A DNA stretch of 64,000 nucleotides from an uncultured bacterium. Lineage in GTDB: Bacteria > Fidelibacterota > Marinisomatia > Marinisomatales > UBA1611. The stretch spans positions 64,001 to 128,000 of the forward strand of contig CALSPG010000005.1 in assembly GCA_943788175.1 (NCBI GenBank). Direction: 5' to 3'. The position numbers and the translations under genes were made by a program. How positions within the stretch are numbered: position 1 is the stretch's first letter; each line of letters starts with the position of its first letter. Below the pieces are notes generated by a model. That model saw only the letters and a list, made by a program, of their open reading frames with translations. It ran no database searches and was not told the DNA's origin. Shown piece after piece: positions 6,666 through 17,666 of the stretch.

Positions 6666-7916
6666 ATGGATTTAAGCGAATTACAAGCTTTACGTATTAA
6701 GGAGCTAGCAGAGCTAGCTAAAAAATTAAACATATCAGACAACATATCTGGTTTAAACAAGCAAGAGTTGACTGTTAAAATATTAGAAGCCCAAGCAGAA
6801 AAAGATGGCTCTGTTTCTGCAAAAGGAGTTTTAGAAGTAATGCATGATGGCTATGGGTTTCTCAGGTCTCCAAATTTTAATTATATGCCTGGGCCAGACG
6901 ATATTTATGTTAGCCCTTCGCAGATTAAAAGGTTTCGATTAAAGACTGGTCACAATGTTTCTGGGCAAATCAGACCACCAAAAGCAAAAGAAAGATTTTA
7001 TGCTTTACTTAGGGTGGAACTAGTGAACGACCAACCAGTTGAAAAATTAAAAGATTGTATTTTATTTGAAAATTTTACACCTCTTTACCCAGAAAAAAGA
7101 TTTACTCTTGAAACAGATGAAAAAAATATTTCTATGAGAATTATGGATTTAGTCTCTCCTATTGGTATGGGCCAGAGAGCTCTCCTTGTTGCTCAGCCTA
7201 AAACAGGGAAAACTGTATTATTGCAAAAGATTGCAAACGCTATTAGTAAAAATCACCCAGACACAAAAAGAATAGTACTATTAATTGATGAAAGACCTGA
7301 AGAAGTAACAGATATGAAACGTAATGTTGATGCTGAGGTTGTAAGCTCTACGTTTGATGAGCCACCTGAAAGACATGTTTCTGTCTCTGATATGGTATTA
7401 CAAAAAGCTAAGCGAATGGTAGAGTTTGGTGACGATGTTGTTATTTTACTTGATAGTATAACGAGGCTTGGAAGAGCGCATAATGCTGTCATTCCTCATA
7501 GCGGTAAAATTTTATCAGGTGGAGTAGACTTTAATGCATTAAAAAAGCCTAAACAATTTTTAGGTGCCGCTAGAAACACCGAAGAAGGTGGTAGTCTAAC
7601 AATCATCGCAACTGCTTTGGTAGACACTGGTAGTCGTGCGGATGAAGTAATTTATGAGGAATTCAAAGGGACCGGTAATATGGAGCTCGCTCTCGATAGA
7701 CACTTAAGTGATAGAAGAATCTATCCTGCCTTCGACATTATAAAGTCTGGTACTAGAAAAGAAGAACTACTGCTTAGTAGAAAAGAATTAGGCAGAATGT
7801 GGATTCTTAGAAAATTAGTAAATGGAATGAAGGTTGATGAGGCTATCCAATTTCTAATCGACAGAATAAAAAGAACTAAGTCTAATAATGAGTTTTTAGA
7901 TACGATGAGTCAGTAA
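6666..7916 (+). CDS. rho: Transcription termination factor Rho
   Basis: [42 protein letters not shown] and SGTRKEELL motifs. Confidence 0.98.
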
Positions 7917-7947
7917 GGACTCTAAATATCTTATATTAATTTGATTT

Positions 7948-8910
7948 ATGGAAACAATTGTATCTGAGTCTATAACCGCTCGCCTAATTACTGATAAGCC
8001 AATCAGGAAGACTCCTTATCAAGTTAAGGGCGTCTTTATGAAACAATTCCCTGACGAAAAAATTGTCCCTTTTCTTGATGGGCGATTGAGGAGTAAATAT
8101 TTATACCCTCGAGTCCAGGTTAAAATAATTAACGAACAAATTTATATTTTAGGTATAAATGAAGGTGTCCAATCTGTTATATCGCTTTTACAAAACTTAA
8201 AATCCTTTAGTTTTGGAGACCTTTTGATAAATATTGATAACGCAGAGGTGGAAAAAAATAAAGATTCGGTTTTATTAACAGATAATTTTCTAAGGTATAA
8301 ATTTATAACCCCATGGGTTGCCTTAAATGCGGGTGGGGATAGTAAATACAAGCGCTTAGAGGATAATGAAAAGCTTCTCTTTTTAAACAAGTTACTTGGT
8401 CAAAATTTATTATTTTTATCAAAGGAACTAGGTTTAAACATTTCCACAAAAATTTTCACAAAAGTAGAAGTTGAAAGTCTTGAACCTGAGAAAGTAGATG
8501 AAAATGGTTGGAAATCATTTAAAGGAGAATTCAAGACAAACTTTATACTTCCTAGTTTCATTGGTTTTGGTAATGGAATAACTAGAGGATTTGGTTCGAT
8601 TTTTAGTTTGAATAATATAAATAATTTAGAGTTTAAAGATTCAAAAGAAACATCTGAGGATTATGTCAAAGAAGAAATTGATGCTGCTGATGCTACAATA
8701 TCATATGTGACTGTAGATGATGCGCCAATTATGTCCAGACGAAAGAAAAAGAAAAAGTTTAAAACAAAGAAAAAAACTCCTTACGCTAAGAGTAATTCAA
8801 GAAAAACTAAGTACAAAGAAAAAAATAATTCTATTAAAAAAGAAACTGATAGTGATGATGAATCTAGATTTAACTCTGAAGAATATCACAAAAAGCAACA
8901 TGATTTCTAA
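7948..8910 (+). CDS. Stand-alone Cas6b-like RAMP protein with charged C-terminal extension
   Basis: YLYPRVQVK, YKFITPWVALN and FKTNFILPSFIGFGNGITRGFGSI match Cas6b-family motifs, including the Cas6 signature GhGxxxxxGhG (residues 206-216). Confidence 0.8.
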   Translation: METIVSESITARLITDKPIRKTPYQVKGVFMKQFPDEKIVPFLDGRLRSKYLYPRVQVKIINEQIYILGINEGVQSVISLLQNLKSFSFGDLLINIDNAEVEKNKDSVLLTDNFLRYKFITPWVALNAGGDSKYKRLEDNEKLLFLNKLLGQNLLFLSKELGLNISTKIFTKVEVESLEPEKVDENGWKSFKGEFKTNFILPSFIGFGNGITRGFGSIFSLNNINNLEFKDSKETSEDYVKEEIDAADATISYVTVDDAPIMSRRKKKKKFKTKKKTPYAKSNSRKTKYKEKNNSIKKETDSDDESRFNSEEYHKKQHDF

Positions 8911-8935
8911 GAAACTTGATAAAAAAATATAGCTT

Positions 8936-10129
8936 ATGAGTATAGCAGAGAGAGTAAATAAAATAAACCCTTCGTTTACTTTGCAAATGGCGACAAAGGC
9001 TGCAGAAATGAGGTCGAAGGGTCTCGACGTTATAAACTTTTCAGTTGGGGAGCCTGATTTTAATACTCCAAAACATATTCGTGATGCAGCGAAAAAAGCT
9101 TTAGATCAGGGTTACACAAAATATACTGCTGGGCCGGGAATGATTGAACTCAGAGAAGCAATTTGTGAAAAACTTAAGAGAGAAAATAAAATATCATATG
9201 ACCCTTCTGACATTCTCGTTTCAAATGGCGAGAAGCAAAGCTTGTATAATGCTTGTCAAGCTATCTTTAATCCTTCAGATAGTGTAATTGTATTTTCACC
9301 TTACTGGGTCTCTTTTCCTGAATTTGTAAAAATGGCAGATGCTGAACCAGTTTTAGTAAATACGCTTTCGGAAAGTAATTTTGAACCAGATTTTGAAGAC
9401 CTTGAAGCGAAGATAGATCCTTCTATTAAGGGAGTTATCATTAATTCGCCATCAAATCCTACCGGAGGAGTATGGAGAAATGAGGCTATCGTTAAATTAT
9501 TAAAATTGGCTAAAAAACATGGTTGGATTGTAATATCTGATGAGTGTTATGAAAGGTTGGTTTATGATGGTACTTTTACTAGTGCTGAAAAATTAAACCA
9601 AACTCATGATATTGGTGCTACGGTTCTAACGTGTATGAGTTTATCTAAAACATACGCAATGACTGGTTGGCGAATCGGTTATAGTGCTGGTCCTAAAGAT
9701 ATTATAAAAGCCATGTCAAAAATTCAAGGCCAAGCTACTTCTTGTGCTAATTCAATAGGGCAAAAAGCAAGTATAGAAGCATTAATTGGTAACCAAACTT
9801 GTGTTGAAGATATGAAGAGCTTGTTTCTAAAAAGAAGAGATTTAATTGTAGAGCTTTTGAATGATTTGCCTGGAGTGAAGTGTGCAACTCCAAAAGGAGC
9901 ATTCTATGTTTTTCCTGATTTTAGTTCTTATTTAAACCAAAAGGCCAATGGAAAATTATTAAAAGATACTTTTGATATTTCAGGGTATATTCTTGATTCT
10001 GTAAAGGTAGTTACAGTTCCAGGAGATGGTTTTGGTGCTCGGGGGCATATAAGGTTTTCATATGCAACAAACAGGAAAATAATTCAAGAGGGAATGACTC
10101 GTGTTAAAAAAGCCCTCGAAATGATTTAG
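8936..10129 (+). CDS. PLP-dependent class I/II aminotransferase (aspartate aminotransferase-like)
   Basis: GEPDF, NSPSNPTG, SDECY and SLSKTYAMTGWRIG (PLP lysine) motifs. Confidence 0.93.
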   Translation: MSIAERVNKINPSFTLQMATKAAEMRSKGLDVINFSVGEPDFNTPKHIRDAAKKALDQGYTKYTAGPGMIELREAICEKLKRENKISYDPSDILVSNGEKQSLYNACQAIFNPSDSVIVFSPYWVSFPEFVKMADAEPVLVNTLSESNFEPDFEDLEAKIDPSIKGVIINSPSNPTGGVWRNEAIVKLLKLAKKHGWIVISDECYERLVYDGTFTSAEKLNQTHDIGATVLTCMSLSKTYAMTGWRIGYSAGPKDIIKAMSKIQGQATSCANSIGQKASIEALIGNQTCVEDMKSLFLKRRDLIVELLNDLPGVKCATPKGAFYVFPDFSSYLNQKANGKLLKDTFDISGYILDSVKVVTVPGDGFGARGHIRFSYATNRKIIQEGMTRVKKALEMI

Positions 10130-10138
10130 GAGTAAAAA

Positions 10139-10387
10139 ATGAAAAAAAATATACATCCAGAAAATTACAGACTAGTAGTCTTTAAAGATACGTCATGTGA
10201 TTATTCGTTTTTGACAAAATCTACGATTGAAACGAAAGACACAGTAGTATGGGATGATGGGAATGAATATCCGCTATACAATATTGAAATTTCTAGCAAG
10301 TCACATCCTTTCTTCACAGGTAAACAAAATTTAGTGGATACTGCAGGAAGAATCGAAAAATTCCAAAAGAAATATAGTAAAAAGTAG
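10139..10387 (+). CDS. rpmE2: 50S ribosomal protein L31 type B (zinc-independent)
   Basis: MKKNIHP...[14 protein letters not shown]...GRIEKF; no CxxC pairs. Confidence 0.95.
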
Positions 10388-10401
10388 AAAAGCTAATTAT
10401 C

Positions 10402-10443
10402 AAAATAGCCCTACTAGACCTTGTGTCGAGTAGGGCTATTTTT
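10402..10443 (+). terminator. Intrinsic terminator after rpmE2 (potentially bidirectional)
   Basis: AAAATAGCCCTACT / AGTAGGGCTATTTT 14-bp inverted repeat plus an inner GAC/GTC stem and a T-run. Confidence 0.85.
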
Positions 10444-10448
10444 ATATA

Positions 10449-11417
10449 ATGAAAAGATTACTTTTACTTTTAACAATGAAGCCAAACATTCTCGTTGGTG
10501 GGCAAGCGGTTATCGAAGGTGTCATGATGAGAGTTCCAGGAGCATATTCAACCGCCGTTAGAGACCCAAAGGGCAATTTAAGATTAAAAAGAGAAAATTT
10601 TGCTTCAATAACCCAGAGTTCTACATTTTGGTCTAAGCCTATTATTAGAGGTATCGCTTCATTATATGAGGCTATGAAAATGGGGATGTCTACTTTGCAC
10701 TGGTCAGCAGATATTAGTTACCCTGAAGAAAGTAATAATGATAGTAATTTTTCTAAATTTTTAGATACTCTAACTACCTTTATTTCAATTTCCTTAGCAA
10801 TTTTATTATTCATGGTTTTGCCAATGTGGTTAACAACTCAATTGTTGAACATAGAAAAAGATGCAATCCTTTTCAACCTTTCTTCTGGTGCATTTCGAAT
10901 TTTATTTTTTATAATTTATTTATTTTTAATATCAAGAATAAAAGATGTTTCAAGATTATTTCAGTATCACGGTGCTGAACATAAGGTTGTATATAACTTC
11001 GAATCAGGAAAAGATATCTCAATAAAAAATGCACAATCATTCTCAACACTACACCCCCGGTGTGGAACTAGTTTTATGTTTATTGTTTTGCTATCAGCTA
11101 TTTTTGTTTTTGCTGCGGTTGATACAATAACTATTTATTTTTTTGGAAAAATTTCACTATCAATCAGATTACTATCGCATTTACCCTTAATTCCTCTTGT
11201 GTCTGGGGTTGGTTATGAATTAATAAAAATAACATCTAAAAGCGAAAGCATGATTTTTAGGATTTTAAAGAAGCCAGGTATTTTATTACAAAATATTACG
11301 ACAAGAGAACCTGATGATAAAATGGTCGAAGTTTCTATTGCTGCGATTAAAGATGCATTTGGCGATGAGTATGAAGAATATAGGGGTAAACAATTTACAG
11401 CAGAGGCTATAGAGTGA
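10449..11417 (+). CDS. DUF1385 (YqhQ-like) membrane protein
   Basis: [29 protein letters not shown] and TTREPD motifs; usual position between rpmE and prfA. Confidence 0.92.
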
Positions 11418-12481
11418 GAGATAAATTAGAATCAATTATTGAAAAATATAATTTTATCCAAGGACAAATGACCAATCAAGAGATTTTATCAAATCCTGAT
11501 AAATTAAAAGATCTAGCAAAAGAATATAAACAGCTCGAGCCAGTAGTTTTAATAGGAATTGAGTATATCAAGATTTTAGATCAAATAATTGATTGTGAAT
11601 CTTTAATTGACTCAGATGACCCTGAGTTAAAAGAAATGGCAATCGAAGACCTAGCTTCAAACAAGAAAATGAAAGCAGATATTGAAGAAGATTTAAAAAT
11701 CAAATTAATACCTAAGGACCCTTTAGATAATAAAAATATAATTTTAGAAATTAGAGCAGGGACAGGCGGTGATGAAGCTGCTTTATTTGCAGCAGATTTA
11801 TTTCGGATGTATTCTCATTTTTCTGAAAAATATAATTGGGAAAAAGAGCTAATAGCATCAAATGAAATTGGAATTGGTGGTTTCAAGGAAGTAATTATTG
11901 GTTTAAAAGGGAAGGGGGCATACGGTATGTTAAAGTATGAAAGTGGCGTCCATCGCGTTCAGCGCGTTCCAGAGACTGAAACTGGAGGAAGAGTCCACAC
12001 ATCTGCTGCTACTGTAGCAGTTTTACCTGAGGCTGAAGAGGTAGATGTTGAAATTAATGATATAGATTTAAAGATTGATACATATAGAGCTAGTGGTGCT
12101 GGAGGTCAGCATGTGAATAAAACAGAATCTGCTATACGGATTACCCATATTCCTACTGGGCTTGTTGTTACTTGTCAGGATGAGTCATCACAACATAAAA
12201 ATAGAGCTTCTGCCTTAAAAGTTTTAAGGTCGAGGTTATTGGCTGACCAAAAACAAAAAGTAGATGCTGAAAGAGCGGCTGAGAGAAAAAGTCTTGTTTC
12301 AACAGGAGACAGGTCTGCAAAAATAAGAACATATAATTTTCCACAAGGTAGGATTACAGACCACCGTATAAACTTTACATCTTATAGATTATCAGAAGCT
12401 ATGAATGGTGATCTTGAAGAAATTATTGAAAAGCTTAAAGTCGCGGAGCAGCAAGATATTTTATCTTCTGAAATAAGTTAA
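11414..12481 (+). CDS. prfA: Peptide chain release factor 1
   Basis: GGQ motif, PET anticodon-mimic (VPETE), [11 protein letters not shown]. Confidence 0.98.
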
Positions 12482-12511
12482 GAATAGATTTGCATATTTG
12501 ATTGTAAGATA

Positions 12512-13387
12512 TTGAATTCTCCTCAAAAAGTAACTAATAAAACGTGGCGAATAATCGATGTAATTAACTGGGGTGTAAAATACTTTCAAGAAAAGTCCTT
12601 TGAAAATCCAAGATTAGAGATAGAAATATTTTTACAGCACATTTTGGGGTATAAGAAAATAGATTTATATATAAATTTCGAAGAGGGAATTTCCAAAAAA
12701 AATCTTAAACAACTAAAGGAACTGGTAAAGAGGCGAGTTAAAAATGAGCCAATTCAATATATTACTGGTGTTTCAAATTTTTATGGTAGAAACTTTAATG
12801 TTAGTAAAAGTGTTTTAATCCCTCGTCCTGAAACAGAAATACTTATTAATGTATCTATAGATTATCTTTCATCAAAAAAAAACCCTTTAATAATTGATGT
12901 AGGTACTGGATCTGGCTGTATTGGTATTACTTTAGCAAAAGAATTGCCTTCATCTAATGTAATCGCGATAGATTCTTCGCAACAAGCACTTAATATTGCA
13001 AAAAAAAATTCTGAATTAATTGGTGTTGAAAATATAAAATTTATAAAACTAGATTTTTTATCTAAAAACCTTAGTTATGTAGCAGATGCTATAGTTTCTA
13101 ACCCGCCTTATATTCCTCAAAAAGATGTTCAATTTCTAATGAAGGACGTAAGAGAATTCGAGCCCCATAAAGCTCTCACTGACAATGCTGATGGATTAGA
13201 GTTTTATAGGGTTTTTGCAATTAAGCTTGATGTTATTCTCGAAAAAAGTGGCGCGTTAATTATCGAAGTAGGGCGAGGGCATCATCCAGAGGAGGTAAAA
13301 AAAATATTTAAAGGGTTTGGATACAATAATATTGAAATGATAGATGATTATAATAAAGATGTAAGGGTTTTAAAAATAATTAAATAA
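12512..13387 (+). CDS. prmC: Release factor glutamine methyltransferase
   Basis: LIPRPETE, DVGTGSGCI and SNPPY motifs; follows prfA. Confidence 0.95.
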   Translation: MNSPQKVTNKTWRIIDVINWGVKYFQEKSFENPRLEIEIFLQHILGYKKIDLYINFEEGISKKNLKQLKELVKRRVKNEPIQYITGVSNFYGRNFNVSKSVLIPRPETEILINVSIDYLSSKKNPLIIDVGTGSGCIGITLAKELPSSNVIAIDSSQQALNIAKKNSELIGVENIKFIKLDFLSKNLSYVADAIVSNPPYIPQKDVQFLMKDVREFEPHKALTDNADGLEFYRVFAIKLDVILEKSGALIIEVGRGHHPEEVKKIFKGFGYNNIEMIDDYNKDVRVLKIIK

Positions 13388-14226
13388 TGGGGAAAGTAGT
13401 TCCATATATAAAGATTGTTAGACCTTTGAATGTTATTTCAGGTGCCATAGCTATTGTGTTTTCAGCTCTCATTGTTGAATATCAAGGGCCAATTGAGTTA
13501 GTTCTATTGCCTGTGTTCGTTGTCGTTTTTTTTACAATAGGAGCAAACGTTCTGAACGATTATTATGATTTTGAAGTTGATAAAATTAATAGACCAGACA
13601 GAGCAATTATAACTGGAGAAGTGCCAAGAGTACATGCTTTATATATTTCAATTTTTTCGTTCATTATTGGAATATTAATAGCACTTCAATTGAACCAATT
13701 ATCTCAACTTATTTCGATTGGTATCTCTTTCCCGTTGTTAGTTCTTTATAACGCGAAGCTTAAAAATTATCCACTCATTGGGAATCTCGTTGTCGCTTTT
13801 ATTTTGGGTCTTTCTTTTATATACGCAGGGTCTGTATTTAATAACATTGAGCCTCTGATGGTCCCTGCCTTATTAGCCTTTGGACTAACTCTTATTAGAG
13901 AAATTGTAAAAGACATTGCAGATATAGAGGGTGATCAAGCTATTAACTCTAAAACTCTTCCTATTGTTCTGGGTAAGATCAAATCAATAAAACTATGCGC
14001 TTTTCTTTCACTAATCTTAGGCATTTGTGCTTTTATGTTGTTTGTAATTGGATATTATAATTTTTATTATGGTTTATTCCTTATCATGACTGTTGAGATT
14101 CCATTAGCAGTGGTTGTAATTTCTTTAATAAATAAACCGACTATAGAGACAGCTAAAAGAGGGGCAAAATTATTAAAAATTTGTACCCTTGGAGGTTTAT
14201 TTTCCATTTACATAGGGACAATATAA
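13387..14226 (+). CDS. UbiA-family prenyltransferase, DGGGP-synthase-like subfamily
   Basis: RPLN, NDYYDFEVDKINRPDR, YNAKLK, GNLVVA and REIVKDIADIEGD motifs; multiple TM helices. Confidence 0.8.
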   Translation: MGKVVPYIKIVRPLNVISGAIAIVFSALIVEYQGPIELVLLPVFVVVFFTIGANVLNDYYDFEVDKINRPDRAIITGEVPRVHALYISIFSFIIGILIALQLNQLSQLISIGISFPLLVLYNAKLKNYPLIGNLVVAFILGLSFIYAGSVFNNIEPLMVPALLAFGLTLIREIVKDIADIEGDQAINSKTLPIVLGKIKSIKLCAFLSLILGICAFMLFVIGYYNFYYGLFLIMTVEIPLAVVVISLINKPTIETAKRGAKLLKICTLGGLFSIYIGTI

Positions 14227-17200
14227 TGACTTCAGAGTTTGTACATCTTCATAATCATTCTGACTATAGCCTCCTTGATGGTGCTCAGCAAGTGCAGCAG
14301 CTAGTAAACACTATAGATGATTTAAACATGGATAGTTTGGCTCTTACTGAACATGGTAATATGTTTAGTGTTGTCCCTTTTTATCAAAAAGCAAAAAAGG
14401 CAGGAATCAGTCCAATTATTGGTTGCGAAACCTATGTGGCCGTTGGTAGTAGACACGATAAGAAACTACAACCAGGCGGTGGATGGGGTAATAACCATTT
14501 AATATTACTAGTTCAAAATCAAATAGGTTATGAAAACCTTATGAAATTGGTAACAGCTGGATATCTTGAGGGCTTTTATTATCGTCCTCGAATTGATATG
14601 GATCTCTTAGAAAAACATAGCGAAGGACTGGTCTGTCTATCTGGGTGTTTGAAAGGTGAAATTCCAGAAAAAATGTTAAATGGTGATTACAATGGTGCAA
14701 GAGATGCAGCCTTAAAATATTCAGAGATATTTTCTGATCGTTTTTATTTAGAGGTTCAAAATCATGGAATTCCAGAAGAAATAGCCAATATTGAAAATAT
14801 GAAAAAATTAGCTCATGATCTTTCTCTGCCACTTGTTTGTACTAACGATGCTCATTATTCTAAGAAAGAGCATTCAGAGGCGCATGACATTCATATATGT
14901 CTCGGTACTGGGAAAAATAGAGATGACCCTAACAGGTTAAGGTACGCAACACCAGAATTTTATTTTAAGACACAAGATGAAATGCATAAACTTTTCAAAG
15001 ATGTTCCAGGTGCAATCGAGAACACTAGAAAAATTGAAGAGAGCATAGATTTTAAAATCACTACAGGTGTTTACCACTTACCTAATTTCCCAATTCCTGA
15101 ACACGAAAGTGATCCTGACCCAGATATTTATTTGAAAAAATTAGTCGTCAGCGGCGTAGAAAAACTTTACGCAGATATTACACCAAAGATTAATGATTTG
15201 ATAGATCATGAACTAAACGTCATCAAAAACATGGGTTTTGCTGGTTATTTTTTAATTACGGCTGATTTTGTGCAGTATGCCAAGAATAAAAAAATCCCCG
15301 TTGGTCCAGGTAGAGGATCAGCAGCAGGGAGCTTAGTTTCCTACGCTCTAGGTATCACTGATATAGATCCAATCAAACATAATTTATTATTTGAGCGATT
15401 TCTAAATCCTGATAGGATTAGTATGCCTGATATTGATATTGATTTTTGCATTGAAAGAAGAGGAGAGGTAATTGATTATATTAAAAATCAATATGGTGAA
15501 AGATCTGTATCTCAAATAATTACTTTTGGTTCAATGAAAGCAAAACAAGTAATCAGAGATGTCGGAAGAGTAATGGGTTACACTTTCAGTGAAGTTGATC
15601 GTTTAGCTAAAGCAATTCCCGATGAATTAAATATAACATTAGAAAGTGCAATTAAAAAAAGTCCTGAATTCAGAAAAATGTCTGAAAATGAGTTTAAGGA
15701 ATTAATTGAACACTCGCTAATTCTTGAAGGAATGAATAGACATGCTTCAATTCATGCTGCTGGAGTCGTAATTGCACCAGGTGATTTGACAAATTATGTA
15801 CCGCTTTACAAGTCTTCCTCTGGTGATGTTACAACACAATATGATATGAAAGGATTAGAAGACTTAGGCCTCCTCAAATTAGATTTTTTAGGGCTTCGAA
15901 ATTTAACTGTAATTAATAAAGCGCTTGATTTGATTGAGTTAAAAGGTGATCGAATTGAAATCGAAAAAGTTTCTATGGAAGAGCCCGAAGTTTATAAATT
16001 ATTTGCAAATGGATTAACGATTGGTGTTTTTCAATTTGAATCATCTGGCATGCGTGAATTTTTAAAGAAGTTGAAACCCACCGCTATTGGTGATTTGATT
16101 GCGATGAATGCTCTTTACAGGCCTGGGCCAATGAATAACATTGACAATTTTATCTCTAGGAAACAGGGTAATAAAAAAATAGAGTACCCTCACCCCTCTT
16201 TGGTCCCAATATTAGAAGAAACTTATGGTATCATTGTTTATCAAGAACAGGTTATGCAGATAGCGCACGACATTGCTGGGTTTTCATTATCTGAGGCAGA
16301 TATTATGAGGCGTGCGATGGGTAAAAAAGATAAAAAATTAATGGATGAACTTTCATTAAAGTTTGTATCAGGAGCTCAGAAAAATGAAATTTCTAAAAAG
16401 AAAGCTGAGGAGATATATGCTTTAATAGAAAAATTTGCGCAATATGGTTTCAATAAAAGTCATTCAACTGCTTATGCTTATATAGCATATCAAACGGCAT
16501 GGTTAAAAACATATCATGCTCCAGAGTTTATGTCTGCTAACCTAACCAGTGAAATGTCTACCATAGATAGAATTGTTACGTTAATTAACGAATGTAAAAA
16601 GTTAAAAATTGAAGTTAAATCTCCAGATGTTAATGTATCTTATACACAATTTTTCCCAGTTGATGAGAATACTATCTCATATGGACTCAATGCAATCAAA
16701 AATGTTGGTGAAAAAGCATTACAAAGTATCATTGAAAATCGAGAAGAGGAGGGCTCTTTTAAATCTATATTTGATTTTTGTTCGAGGATTGATCAACAAA
16801 AAGTTAATAAACGAGTATTAGAAAGCTTGATTAAATCTGGGGCAATGGACTCATTGTCTGGAACTAGAGCACAGAATTTTGATGCAGTGGATACTGCAAT
16901 TAAATATGGTCAGCAGCTTCAAAACGCAGGCAACAAAAACCAAGTGGACCTTTTTTCTACGGGAGAGAATCAAAGCTCGCTCATTAAAGTTCCAGATTTA
17001 AAAGATATTGAGGATTGGAATGAAAAAAAATCACTAACTCATGAAAAAGAAGTATTGGGGATGTATGTATCAGGGCATCCTTTGTTAGAACATGCTGATG
17101 ATGTTGAAGAATTTACATCTGTAGACTTTTCAGATAGTCTCACGCTTAAAAAAAATGAAATTGTTACTGTAGGTGGTATGGTAACAAAAATAACAAAAAA

Positions 17201-17666
17201 ATATGATAGGCGAAATCGTGCCATGGCATTTTTTGAAATGGATTGTTTTGGTGGGAATGTAGAGGTAATTGCATTTTCAGATTGTTTCGAACAATATGAA
17301 GATTTAATTGAAGAAGATGCAGTTATATTTATTAATGGAAAAATGGCGGATGACACTAACTTTTCTGATTTAAAAGTAATGGCAGACACAATAGTCTCCG
17401 TTGAAAACGCCAGAGAATATTTCTCTAGAAAACTGGTAATTAATCTTAAATCTCAAAATATTTCGCCAGAAGATGTTGAAGACCTTTATGAGTTCTCTAA
17501 GAGGTTCCCAGGAGAATGCAATTTACTTTTTCATTTGTCAAATCCAAATCCTGCTATTAGTAAACCAGTAACTGTATTAGCCCATAATATTAAAGTGTCT
17601 ACAGATAAAAATTTTATTAGACAGTTACGTGATAAATACGGAAAAGAAAATATTCGAGTAGAATGA
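14226..17666 (+). CDS. dnaE: DNA polymerase III alpha subunit
   Basis: Start is ATG at 14226 (TAATG overlap). PHP domain HLHNHSDYSLLDG, GRGSAAGS, PDIDIDF, clamp-binding QVDLF. Confidence 0.98.
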   Translation: MTSEFVHLHNHSDYSLLDGAQQVQQLVNTIDDLNMDSLALTEHGNMFSVVPFYQKAKKAGISPIIGCETYVAVGSRHDKKLQPGGGWGNNHLILLVQNQIGYENLMKLVTAGYLEGFYYRPRIDMDLLEKHSEGLVCLSGCLKGEIPEKMLNGDYNGARDAALKYSEIFSDRFYLEVQNHGIPEEIANIENMKKLAHDLSLPLVCTNDAHYSKKEHSEAHDIHICLGTGKNRDDPNRLRYATPEFYFKTQDEMHKLFKDVPGAIENTRKIEESIDFKITTGVYHLPNFPIPEHESDPDPDIYLKKLVVSGVEKLYADITPKINDLIDHELNVIKNMGFAGYFLITADFVQYAKNKKIPVGPGRGSAAGSLVSYALGITDIDPIKHNLLFERFLNPDRISMPDIDIDFCIERRGEVIDYIKNQYGERSVSQIITFGSMKAKQVIRDVGRVMGYTFSEVDRLAKAIPDELNITLESAIKKSPEFRKMSENEFKELIEHSLILEGMNRHASIHAAGVVIAPGDLTNYVPLYKSSSGDVTTQYDMKGLEDLGLLKLDFLGLRNLTVINKALDLIELKGDRIEIEKVSMEEPEVYKLFANGLTIGVFQFESSGMREFLKKLKPTAIGDLIAMNALYRPGPMNNIDNFISRKQGNKKIEYPHPSLVPILEETYGIIVYQEQVMQIAHDIAGFSLSEADIMRRAMGKKDKKLMDELSLKFVSGAQKNEISKKKAEEIYALIEKFAQYGFNKSHSTAYAYIAYQTAWLKTYHAPEFMSANLTSEMSTIDRIVTLINECKKLKIEVKSPDVNVSYTQFFPVDENTISYGLNAIKNVGEKALQSIIENREEEGSFKSIFDFCSRIDQQKVNKRVLESLIKSGAMDSLSGTRAQNFDAVDTAIKYGQQLQNAGNKNQVDLFSTGENQSSLIKVPDLKDIEDWNEKKSLTHEKEVLGMYVSGHPLLEHADDVEEFTSVDFSDSLTLKKNEIVTVGGMVTKITKKYDRRNRAMAFFEMDCFGGNVEVIAFSDCFEQYEDLIEEDAVIFINGKMADDTNFSDLKVMADTIVSVENAREYFSRKLVINLKSQNISPEDVEDLYEFSKRFPGECNLLFHLSNPNPAISKPVTVLAHNIKVSTDKNFIRQLRDKYGKENIRVE

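Follow-up and report, generated by a model that had tools for sequence, protein, structure and literature searches.

A Cas6b-like gene directly behind rho

We analyzed a stretch of DNA of 64,000 nucleotides (nt), hereafter the window, which is part of a 583-kb contig in a 2.27-Mb assembly (12 contigs, 33% G+C, 92.2% complete) of a bacterium of the phylum Fidelibacterota, under which NCBI taxonomy lists the Neomarinimicrobiota within the Fibrobacterota, Chlorobiota, and Bacteroidota (FCB) group. At 7948-8910 on the plus strand lies a single open reading frame (ORF) with an ATG start, encoding a 320-amino-acid (aa) protein of the Cas6b family that public records give only as a "hypothetical protein." The gene is separated by 31 nt from the stop of rho (7916) and by 25 nt from the start of an aminotransferase gene (8936), and its product carries the motifs YLYPRVQVK (residues 51-59), YKFITPWVALN (residues 117-127), and FKTNFILP..GFGNGITRGFG (residues 195-216). 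An initial annotation, made from the letters of the window, had described an orphan Cas6b-like protein embedded in the rho-rpmE-prfA-prmC cluster and proposed its co-option for a role outside CRISPR; the ORF, the 3 motifs, the glycine-rich loop at nt 8563-8595, and both spacings are as it described them. The features are as follows:

6666-7916, plus strand: rho, 416 aa, the upstream neighbor (Pfam Rho_N, Rho_RNA_bind, and ATP-synt_ab)
7917-7947, plus strand: spacer of 31 nt between rho and the Cas6b-like gene, with no terminator-like site
7948-8910, plus strand: Cas6b-like ORF, 320 aa (Pfam, PADLOC, PDB, and an AlphaFold2 model searched with Foldseek)
7981-8259, plus strand: Cas6b_N domain, residues 12-104 (Pfam PF17955)
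8068-8076, plus strand: codons P41-F42-L43, in the place of the Cas6b catalytic H38-N39-H40 (HMMER alignment to PDB entry 4z7k; MAFFT columns)
8278-8601, plus strand: Cas6b_C domain, residues 111-218 (Pfam PF17262; found in the same place by the genome search)
8563-8595, plus strand: glycine-rich loop GFGNGITRGFG, residues 206-216 (alignment of 32 orthologues)
8614-8907, plus strand: basic, mostly disordered C-terminal tail, residues 223-320, specific to the order of the window (alignment, model confidence, and isoelectric point)
8869-8901, plus strand: conserved C-terminal peptide FNSEEYHKKQH, residues 308-318 (pattern count in relatives)
8936-10129, plus strand: class I/II aminotransferase, the usual downstream neighbor (Pfam Aminotran_1_2; synteny)
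10139-13387, plus strand: rpmE, DUF1385, prfA, and prmC (Pfam Ribosomal_L31, DUF1385, PCRF/RF-1, and PrmC; synteny)

Profile searches matched both Cas6b domains of Pfam on the 320-aa protein, Cas6b_C with E 1.1e-25 and 90.5 bits (cut-off 39.4) and Cas6b_N with E 1.7e-11 and 44.5 bits (cut-off 25). The PADLOC profiles for Cas6 and Cas6b matched at 1.8e-43 and 8.7e-40, respectively, no NCBIfam family matched the protein, and a sequence search of PDB identified 1 solved relative, the Cas6b of Methanococcus maripaludis (4z7k_B, E 8e-28, residues 25-219). In an AlphaFold2 model based on the 32 orthologues, the block mean of the predicted local distance difference test (pLDDT) is 86-97 over residues 11-220 and at least 90 in 17 of 21 ten-residue blocks. 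The best Foldseek matches of this model are Cas6b chains, led by 4z7k_A (E 1.3e-17, target template modeling [TM] score 0.81, root mean square deviation 3.2 Å), with the remaining Cas6 families matched at far lower TM scores, and the 2 ferredoxin-like domains of the model, of the RNA recognition motif type, superpose on the solved Cas6b. The initial annotation had expected both Pfam domains and the double ferredoxin-like fold of repeat-associated mysterious proteins (RAMPs), and both are seen. The assignment to the Cas6b family is secure, far beyond chance; the protein is a Cas6b by descent and fold, but probably not by function.

Catalytic residues and CRISPR-Cas context

As a processing enzyme, Cas6b binds the RNA of a CRISPR repeat and cuts it 8 nt upstream of the spacer. 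One defining feature of such an endoribonuclease, its pair of catalytic histidines, is absent from the window protein. In the HMMER alignment to 4z7k, P41, L43, and Y51 stand opposite H38, H40, and Y47 of the M. maripaludis enzyme, in which the H38A/H40A double mutant drastically loses activity and the single histidine mutants and Y47A are only reduced, with considerable activity kept by the single histidine mutants (passages of PMC3479195). We counted the alignment columns in a MAFFT alignment of 61 distinct rho-linked sequences (64 rows minus identical ones, with the copy at locus L048 and the fragment at locus L052 excluded) and 92 other Cas6b sequences, the latter being 5 Cas6b of loci that have no rho plus 87 full-length representatives retrieved by searching 1.84 billion proteins. 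Histidine occupies the H38 column in 0 of 61 rho-linked sequences versus 80 of the 92 others, and the H40 column in 0 of 61 versus 81 of 92. The Y47 column holds Phe in 31 and Tyr in 14 of the 61 rho-linked sequences, compared with Tyr in 79 of 92 other Cas6b. Two basic positions are also replaced: position 184 of the window protein is Asp or Glu in 45/61 versus Lys in 78/92, and position 209, in the glycine-rich loop, is Asn in 57/61 versus Lys in 76/92.

All 32 aligned orthologues have the loop glycines G208, G214, and G216 unchanged, the fold-defining motifs are likewise invariant, and the rho-linked sequences have new conserved residues specific to their clade (G45, R48, R55, N147, and F156). 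Near the old active site, R48, Y53, R55, Q57, and K59 are at least 90% conserved among them. Judged from these columns, the shape and the RNA-binding surface appear to have been retained and the catalytic pair of Cas6b given up. Because the pair is lost and the fold and glycine-rich loop are retained, the protein most likely binds RNA without cutting it, or cuts it very slowly. The loss of both histidines across the clade had gone unmentioned in the initial annotation.

A different outcome of the same changes would be a protein that is still an endoribonuclease through other residues (Arg, Tyr, and Lys) and processes some housekeeping RNA, for example a stable RNA precursor or the polycistronic transcript from rho to prmC. 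Active sites of Cas6 are plastic: the Sulfolobus Cas6 Sso1437 cleaves even though the canonical histidine is absent (PMC3652601), so residual or alternative catalysis in the rho-linked protein is conceivable. The considerable activity of the single histidine mutants of M. maripaludis Cas6b, the 5 residues conserved near the old active site, and the strong purifying selection described below would also fit such an enzyme. We nevertheless regard it as doubtful, with both histidines gone in 61/61 sequences and the double mutant of the closest studied enzyme nearly dead (passages of PMC3479195), with Y47, which supports activity in M. maripaludis, replaced by Phe in about half of the clade, with the charge of K184 reversed, and with no candidate substrate found in our searches.

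The second defining feature of a working Cas6b, a CRISPR array together with type I or type III cas genes in the same genome, was not found either. Searches of the whole assembly for Cas1, RAMPs, DevR/Cas7, Cas5d, and Cas2 gave no match, with control genomes positive in each search, and the window gene is the sole Cas6b_C match in the assembly. Our own k-mer scan for spaced repeats across the whole assembly found no array; of its 6 candidates, the 2 with the most supporting k-mers (contig C9 at 8.6 kb and contig C1 at 29.6 kb) were read and rejected as coding tandem repeats, and the 4 others, with 1-4 supporting k-mers, were left unread. The 72-nt tandem repeats at these 2 places, both outside the window, encode a Ser/Asn/Lys-rich repeat protein (C9:8,630-8,990) and a leucine-rich-repeat protein (C1:29,600-30,500). 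The absence of cas genes and arrays that the initial annotation had reported for 64 kb holds for the whole 2.27-Mb assembly, in which the cas searches and the k-mer scan revealed no type I-B or type III locus.

Since arrays can be missed in draft genomes, the genomes of relatives matter, and we surveyed 301 genomes of the phylum (300 sampled plus the window's own), with core residues 1-225 as the query and with the same set for Cas1, as the identical per-family denominators confirm. The core was matched in 161 of the 301 genomes and Cas1 in 59. In the order of the window, a relative was identified in 114 of 144 sampled genomes and Cas1 in only 14, and in the genus of the window the gene was present in 4/4 genomes and Cas1 in 0/4. 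All 30 misses in the order belong to 1 family with genomes of 0.7-1.1 Mb (hereafter the ~1-Mb family), and none of these 30 genomes gave a Cas1 match either. The gene is frequent and Cas1 rare in both the order and the genus, and the distribution of the gene is therefore uncoupled from CRISPR-Cas. Further, 4 loci of the phylum without rho (L064 and L066-L068) have the H-N-H motif, with L064 sharing its contig with a Cas1 gene, and the CRISPR-Cas-bearing genomes of the phylum carry separate, His-bearing Cas6b genes away from rho.

These data also bear on whether the protein could be an ordinary Cas6 working in trans for a CRISPR-Cas locus that the assembly has missed. An assembly of 12 contigs that is 92.2% complete leaves room for such a locus, as arrays often break assemblies. 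Type III systems can use Cas6 in trans, according to passages of PMC12669027. We consider this explanation very improbable in view of the 5 cas families and the arrays that were not found in the genome itself, the rarity of Cas1 in an order and genus where the gene is common, the separate His-bearing Cas6b of those genomes that do have CRISPR-Cas, and the loss of the catalytic histidines. The window gene is not a working CRISPR part.

Linkage to rho, descent, and the C-terminal tail

We scanned synteny in 1 genome per species, with the genome search covering the phylum of the window, and obtained 51 loci, all from metagenome-assembled genomes (MAGs) or single-amplified genomes of Marinimicrobia, Neomarinimicrobiota, or Fidelibacterota or from marine MAGs. 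The gene has rho directly upstream in 49 of the 51 and, wherever the flank reaches that far, lies in the order folC-rho-gene-aminotransferase-rpmE-(DUF1385)-prfA-prmC. One exception, L051, is a 2-kb contig whose protein has 1 histidine and groups with ordinary Cas6b, and the other, L052, is a copy cut by the contig start. We added 19 weaker-match loci from deeper families (protein identity 26-43%), 3 of which, L069-L071, are the same places as L032, L040, and L047, and rho was directly upstream in 15 of these 19, the other 4 being L064 and L066-L068. Down to 26% identity, every one of the 61 other loci in the His-less clade has the gene directly behind rho, and the two are separated by 0-74 nt in all loci, however deep the branch. 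In 5 loci rho is kept upstream though the downstream genes differ, with ubiA-dnaE next in L053-L055 and other genes in L056 and L057. Because rho is kept where the downstream genes vary, the constant partner is rho and not the translation genes. The placement within the rho-rpmE-prfA-prmC cluster given by the initial annotation is confirmed in the window by Pfam and synteny; as a description of the clade it narrows to rho, and the clade does not have the patchy distribution that had been named as a point against co-option.

Around the gene, the wider Pfam order of the window is amidase, racemase, Mur-ligase/FolC-type, Rho, aminotransferase, L31, DUF1385, RF-1, PrmC, and UbiA. The dnaE ORF farther downstream is listed at 14181-17666 with a TTG start and a 46-nt overlap with the end of the UbiA-family gene (13387-14226), and its true start is probably further downstream than the listed TTG.

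The gene has also been lost. All 5 genomes of the ~1-Mb family that were checked (G024, G071, G187, G211, and G230; loci L073-L077) show a clean deletion, with rho abutting the aminotransferase gene. In 5 further families that gave no match, none of the 5 genomes checked had a Cas6b-like ORF behind rho, and in 1 of them rho abuts the aminotransferase gene. The Rho proteins of the genomes of other families without the gene are still 62-71% identical.

To place the rho-linked proteins among Cas6b, we built a quick IQ-TREE tree of 151 rows, after 2 rows with fewer than 170 core residues were dropped, with Shimodaira-Hasegawa-like approximate likelihood ratio test (SH-aLRT) support. The 61 rho-linked rows fall on one side of a branch with SH-aLRT 87-90, together with 3 His-less, unlabelled representatives (P0161, P0240, and P0267). 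Members of the P0161 cluster are listed in public records as "hypothetical protein" of Marinimicrobia, and a metagenome scan with P0267 found nothing. The nearest outgroup, P0198, retains both histidines and the lysines, and on its metagenome contig it comes right after genes that match Cas7d (E 2.2e-26) and Cas5d (E 2.9e-06). On that contig (L084:71-2800), P0198 follows a 395-aa protein without a PADLOC match and then the Cas7d-like and Cas5d-like genes; the locus is a compact type I-D-like effector module with a Cas6b-type nuclease. In the tree, the CRISPR-linked Cas6b genes of the phylum itself are placed on other branches; an Atlas look-up returned Cas6b clusters mostly from Bacteroidota, and the viral contig collection held no relative. 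The simplest history has a CRISPR Cas6b captured once behind rho; it then lost the histidines and was passed on vertically, with a few deletions along the way.

The ratio of nonsynonymous to synonymous substitution rates (dN/dS), from pairwise Nei-Gojobori estimates, is 0.007-0.18 for the core in 18 usable pairs (1 further pair had saturated dS) and 0.07-0.36 for the tail in 14 pairs. Thirteen columns are invariant across the 32 orthologues, and of the 62 rho-linked copies, which reach down to 26% identity, 61 have an unbroken reading frame. The core is under strong purifying selection, which the initial annotation had left to be checked, alongside 1 probable frameshifted copy and the clean loss in the ~1-Mb lineage. 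The frameshifted copy, at L048:6001-6700, has an internal deletion and a frame change; at L041:4691-5935, it is rho that has 1 internal stop codon. Both defects could be MAG assembly errors.

Loss of the catalytic residues, the frameshifted L048 copy, and deletion of the gene in some lineages would be expected if the gene were now functionless, a remnant decaying after the loss of a CRISPR-Cas system. We find this scarcely credible, as the selection data already contradict it: frames are intact in all rho-linked copies but 1, the core dN/dS is low, invariant columns persist, and a tail with conserved motifs has been gained.

That tail distinguishes the order of the window, in which the protein is 290-390 aa long, from other classes, in which it has ~220-260 aa. 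The ~100 extra residues are basic (isoelectric point 9.26), lysine-rich, and mostly of low model confidence, with pLDDT below 50 for residues 281-309. They end in the motif [FY]N[ST]x[EK][YH]H[KQ][KR]QH, represented in the window by FNSEEYHKKQH, which is unique in a six-frame translation of the genome. We identified the motif at the end of all 28 locus proteins of at least 290 aa and of 116 of 118 metagenome relatives of 290-400 aa; the 2 exceptions look fused or truncated. This conserved ending had also been passed over in the initial annotation. A conserved peptide that ends a variable linker usually docks on a conserved partner, and the tail peptide may do so here. Further motifs of the tail (window 8614-8907; tails of L002-L025, L043, L046, and L050) include (E/Q)EI(D/E)VxKVPRPKK and, in many genera, RSKK(V/I)LSEEF(D/E)IE. 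Residues 241-260 are predicted with pLDDT 82-85 and include a short strand, as if packing on the core.

Transcription, contact with Rho, and a possible role

No terminator-like site was identified on the plus strand between 2861 and 11049, which bears out the statement of the initial annotation that there is none until after rpmE2; there is none directly after rpmE either. We found RNA-library contigs from 2 studies with 95-100% identity to the region. One contig from X2 (7281-9023) takes in the gene completely, together with the 3' half of rho and the first part of the aminotransferase gene. The rho-gene junction is bridged by contigs from X3 (7290-7996) and X4 (7541-8094), and the junction of the gene with the aminotransferase by contigs from X3 (8854-9130) and X4 (8859-9058). 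The short spacers, the lack of a terminator-like site, and the bridging contigs are consistent with co-transcription with rho, as the initial annotation had proposed, without proving a single transcript. Conserved co-location (synteny and spacers) is in this way accompanied by signs of co-expression, the contigs being no proof of 1 transcript.

Contact between the protein and Rho was assessed by complex prediction from alignments of 29 cognate Rho/Cas6b-like pairs. The score was 0.41, the median of runs at 0.01, 0.41, and 0.43, and the best of 3 controls reached 0.01; contact agreement in the complex runs was at least 21% and partner pLDDT at least 70. Of 80 solved complexes, 58 reach the mark applied to this score, as do 2 of 110 mismatched pairs, with passes at or below 0.60 coming from 7 of the 80 solved complexes and both mismatches, counts that are only rough here because the alignments were our own. 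We also compared 181 Rho columns, chosen for conservation of at least 95% among 55 distinct Rho proteins of gene-bearing loci, with 6 lineages without the gene: 151 columns are changed in none of these lineages, 25 in one, 4 in two, and 1 (Q7) in four. Q7, in the Rho_N domain (window 6684-6686), is kept in 54 of the 55 Rho proteins from gene-bearing loci and changed in 4 of the 6 lineages without the gene, a hint that its change is tied to gene loss.

Searches for RNA targets gave no candidate. The rho-gene spacers of relatives hold no conserved RNA element, Rfam gave 0 matches on the window at gathering score and 0 at E up to 1, and the genome itself has no dispersed repeat family, its abundant 18-mers coming only from a 111-nt tandem repeat and a coding repeat. 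The 111-nt repeat, in ~10 copies, lies near the ends of contigs C6 (316,400-318,200) and C8 (121,300-122,900) in opposite orientation; both places probably belong to a single repetitive gene at which the assembly broke, and the repeat, being without spacers, is not a CRISPR array. None of the CRISPR-linked Cas6b loci of the phylum that were fetched held an array that could have supplied probes.

Whether the gene's place behind rho reflects a shared function can be argued both ways. The protein might bind RNA or act as an RNA chaperone without being tied to Rho in function, its position the result of landing in a conserved operon. The whole folC-rho-...-prmC block is conserved in most loci, so the linkage to rho could be passive; moreover, lineages without the gene keep a very similar Rho, only Q7 of the 181 columns changes in 4 of the 6, and the complex prediction is weak. 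In contrast, rho is still the neighbor in the 5 loci where the downstream genes have been replaced, the spacers remain within 0-74 nt even in the deepest parts of the clade, and the complex score is 0.40 above every control. On balance we hold a purely passive linkage to be unlikely, although it deserves a place beside the reading that follows.

The reading that we tentatively prefer is that of an exapted, nuclease-dead RNA-binding protein acting with Rho. A Cas6b would have been captured once near the base of the Marinimicrobia/Fidelibacterota lineage and then inherited vertically, as a chromosomal gene directly behind rho, keeping its double ferredoxin-like fold and glycine-rich RNA-binding loop and losing both catalytic histidines. 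The protein would bind specific cellular RNA, with cleavage absent or very slow; it would be made together with Rho from a shared transcription unit and, jointly with Rho, would act on transcripts, for instance by tagging RNAs for Rho-dependent termination or by shielding them from it. In the order of the window, the lysine-rich disordered tail would add a C-terminal peptide that docks on a conserved partner. Of these elements, the homology, the fold, the missing histidines, the lack of CRISPR-Cas, the link of the gene to rho, and the purifying selection are shown by the data, whereas binding of RNA without cutting and a shared function with Rho are inferences. The co-option for a non-CRISPR role suggested by the initial annotation is supported, with nothing found that it had listed as speaking against it; the exact role may lie in RNA processing or in regulation. 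A more specific form of this proposal, which we regard as a long shot, is a sequence-specific Rho adaptor in which the old repeat-binding surface would read a short transcript tag, perhaps derived from a CRISPR repeat, and the core, together with NSEEYHKKQH in this order, would recruit or block Rho.

Several observations weigh against a nuclease-dead partner of Rho. The gene is dispensable, being deleted in 5/5 checked genomes of the ~1-Mb family and missing behind rho in 5/5 of other families while a similar Rho stays, and its adjacency to rho could be operon inertia alone. Loss of the histidines is not proof of a loss of cleavage, given the precedent of Sso1437 and the retention of R48, Y53, R55, and K59 near the old site. 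Arrays often fail to assemble, and the assembly here is 92% complete. RNA-library contigs cannot prove a single transcript and may contain DNA. The complex prediction is a weak pass, with 1 of 3 runs at 0.01 and no interface given, and the spacer, Rfam, and dispersed-repeat searches yielded no RNA target.

To our knowledge, Cas6 enzymes are known only in CRISPR-Cas or its mobile derivatives. In the full-text literature that is open without subscription (main texts, supplements aside), we found no Cas6 kept outside CRISPR-Cas as a housekeeping gene or beside rho, and a rho-linked Cas6b is not mentioned in the consulted passages of PMC8730458, PMC12669027, and the preprint 10.1101/270033. The 2025 classification treats matches outside cas islands as false positives in profile building, according to passages of PMC12669027.

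A Cas6b kept across the whole depth of a phylum, with its catalytic pair lost and its place beside rho, would be a clear example of a single Cas protein taken into core RNA metabolism, and it suggests that a former immune protein has acquired a new task in the cell. Marinimicrobia (SAR406-type) are abundant in the ocean and without genetic tools, and the gene offers a lead on how Rho may be directed in them. It also puts on offer a natural, probably nuclease-dead, and presumably sequence-specific RNA-binding module. Should the adaptor proposal be true, a former immune protein would provide targeted Rho-dependent termination in a phylum of abundant ocean bacteria.

Among known systems, the Rho accessory factors NusG, Rof/YaeO, phage P4 Psu, and Hfq are comparable in their possible role, that of a small protein modulating where Rho acts, to which the position beside rho and the weak complex prediction may be added; the window protein differs in having no sequence or fold relation to them, and its contact with Rho is a predicted one. 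The M. maripaludis Cas6b (PDB 4Z7K/4Z7L) shares both Pfam domains, ~28-30% identity, a TM score of 0.81, the motifs YP.Q.K, Y.F.TPW.ALN, and F.G.F..N..P, and the glycine-rich loop. The window protein differs from it in that P41/L43 replace H38/H40, K184 and K209 are replaced in the clade by D/E and N, respectively, and Y47 is often Phe; further, no cas operon or array was found in its genome, the gene is fixed behind rho, and a tail of ~100 aa is present in the order of the window. The Sulfolobus solfataricus Cas6 Sso1437 (PDB 3ZFV) likewise combines a Cas6 fold with the absence of the canonical histidine (PMC3652601) and was matched by Foldseek (3zfv_B, E 2.5e-05), but it is a working CRISPR enzyme that processes CRISPR RNA and belongs to another Cas6 subfamily (TM score 0.30-0.35 to the model). 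Outside the Cas6 families, solo-Cas4 (PMC5704561) is likewise a single Cas protein outside CRISPR, and the exapted Cas12f homologues that act in transcription (bioRxiv 10.1101/2025.06.10.658865) are likewise Cas proteins kept for another role, each of them from a protein family other than that of the window protein.

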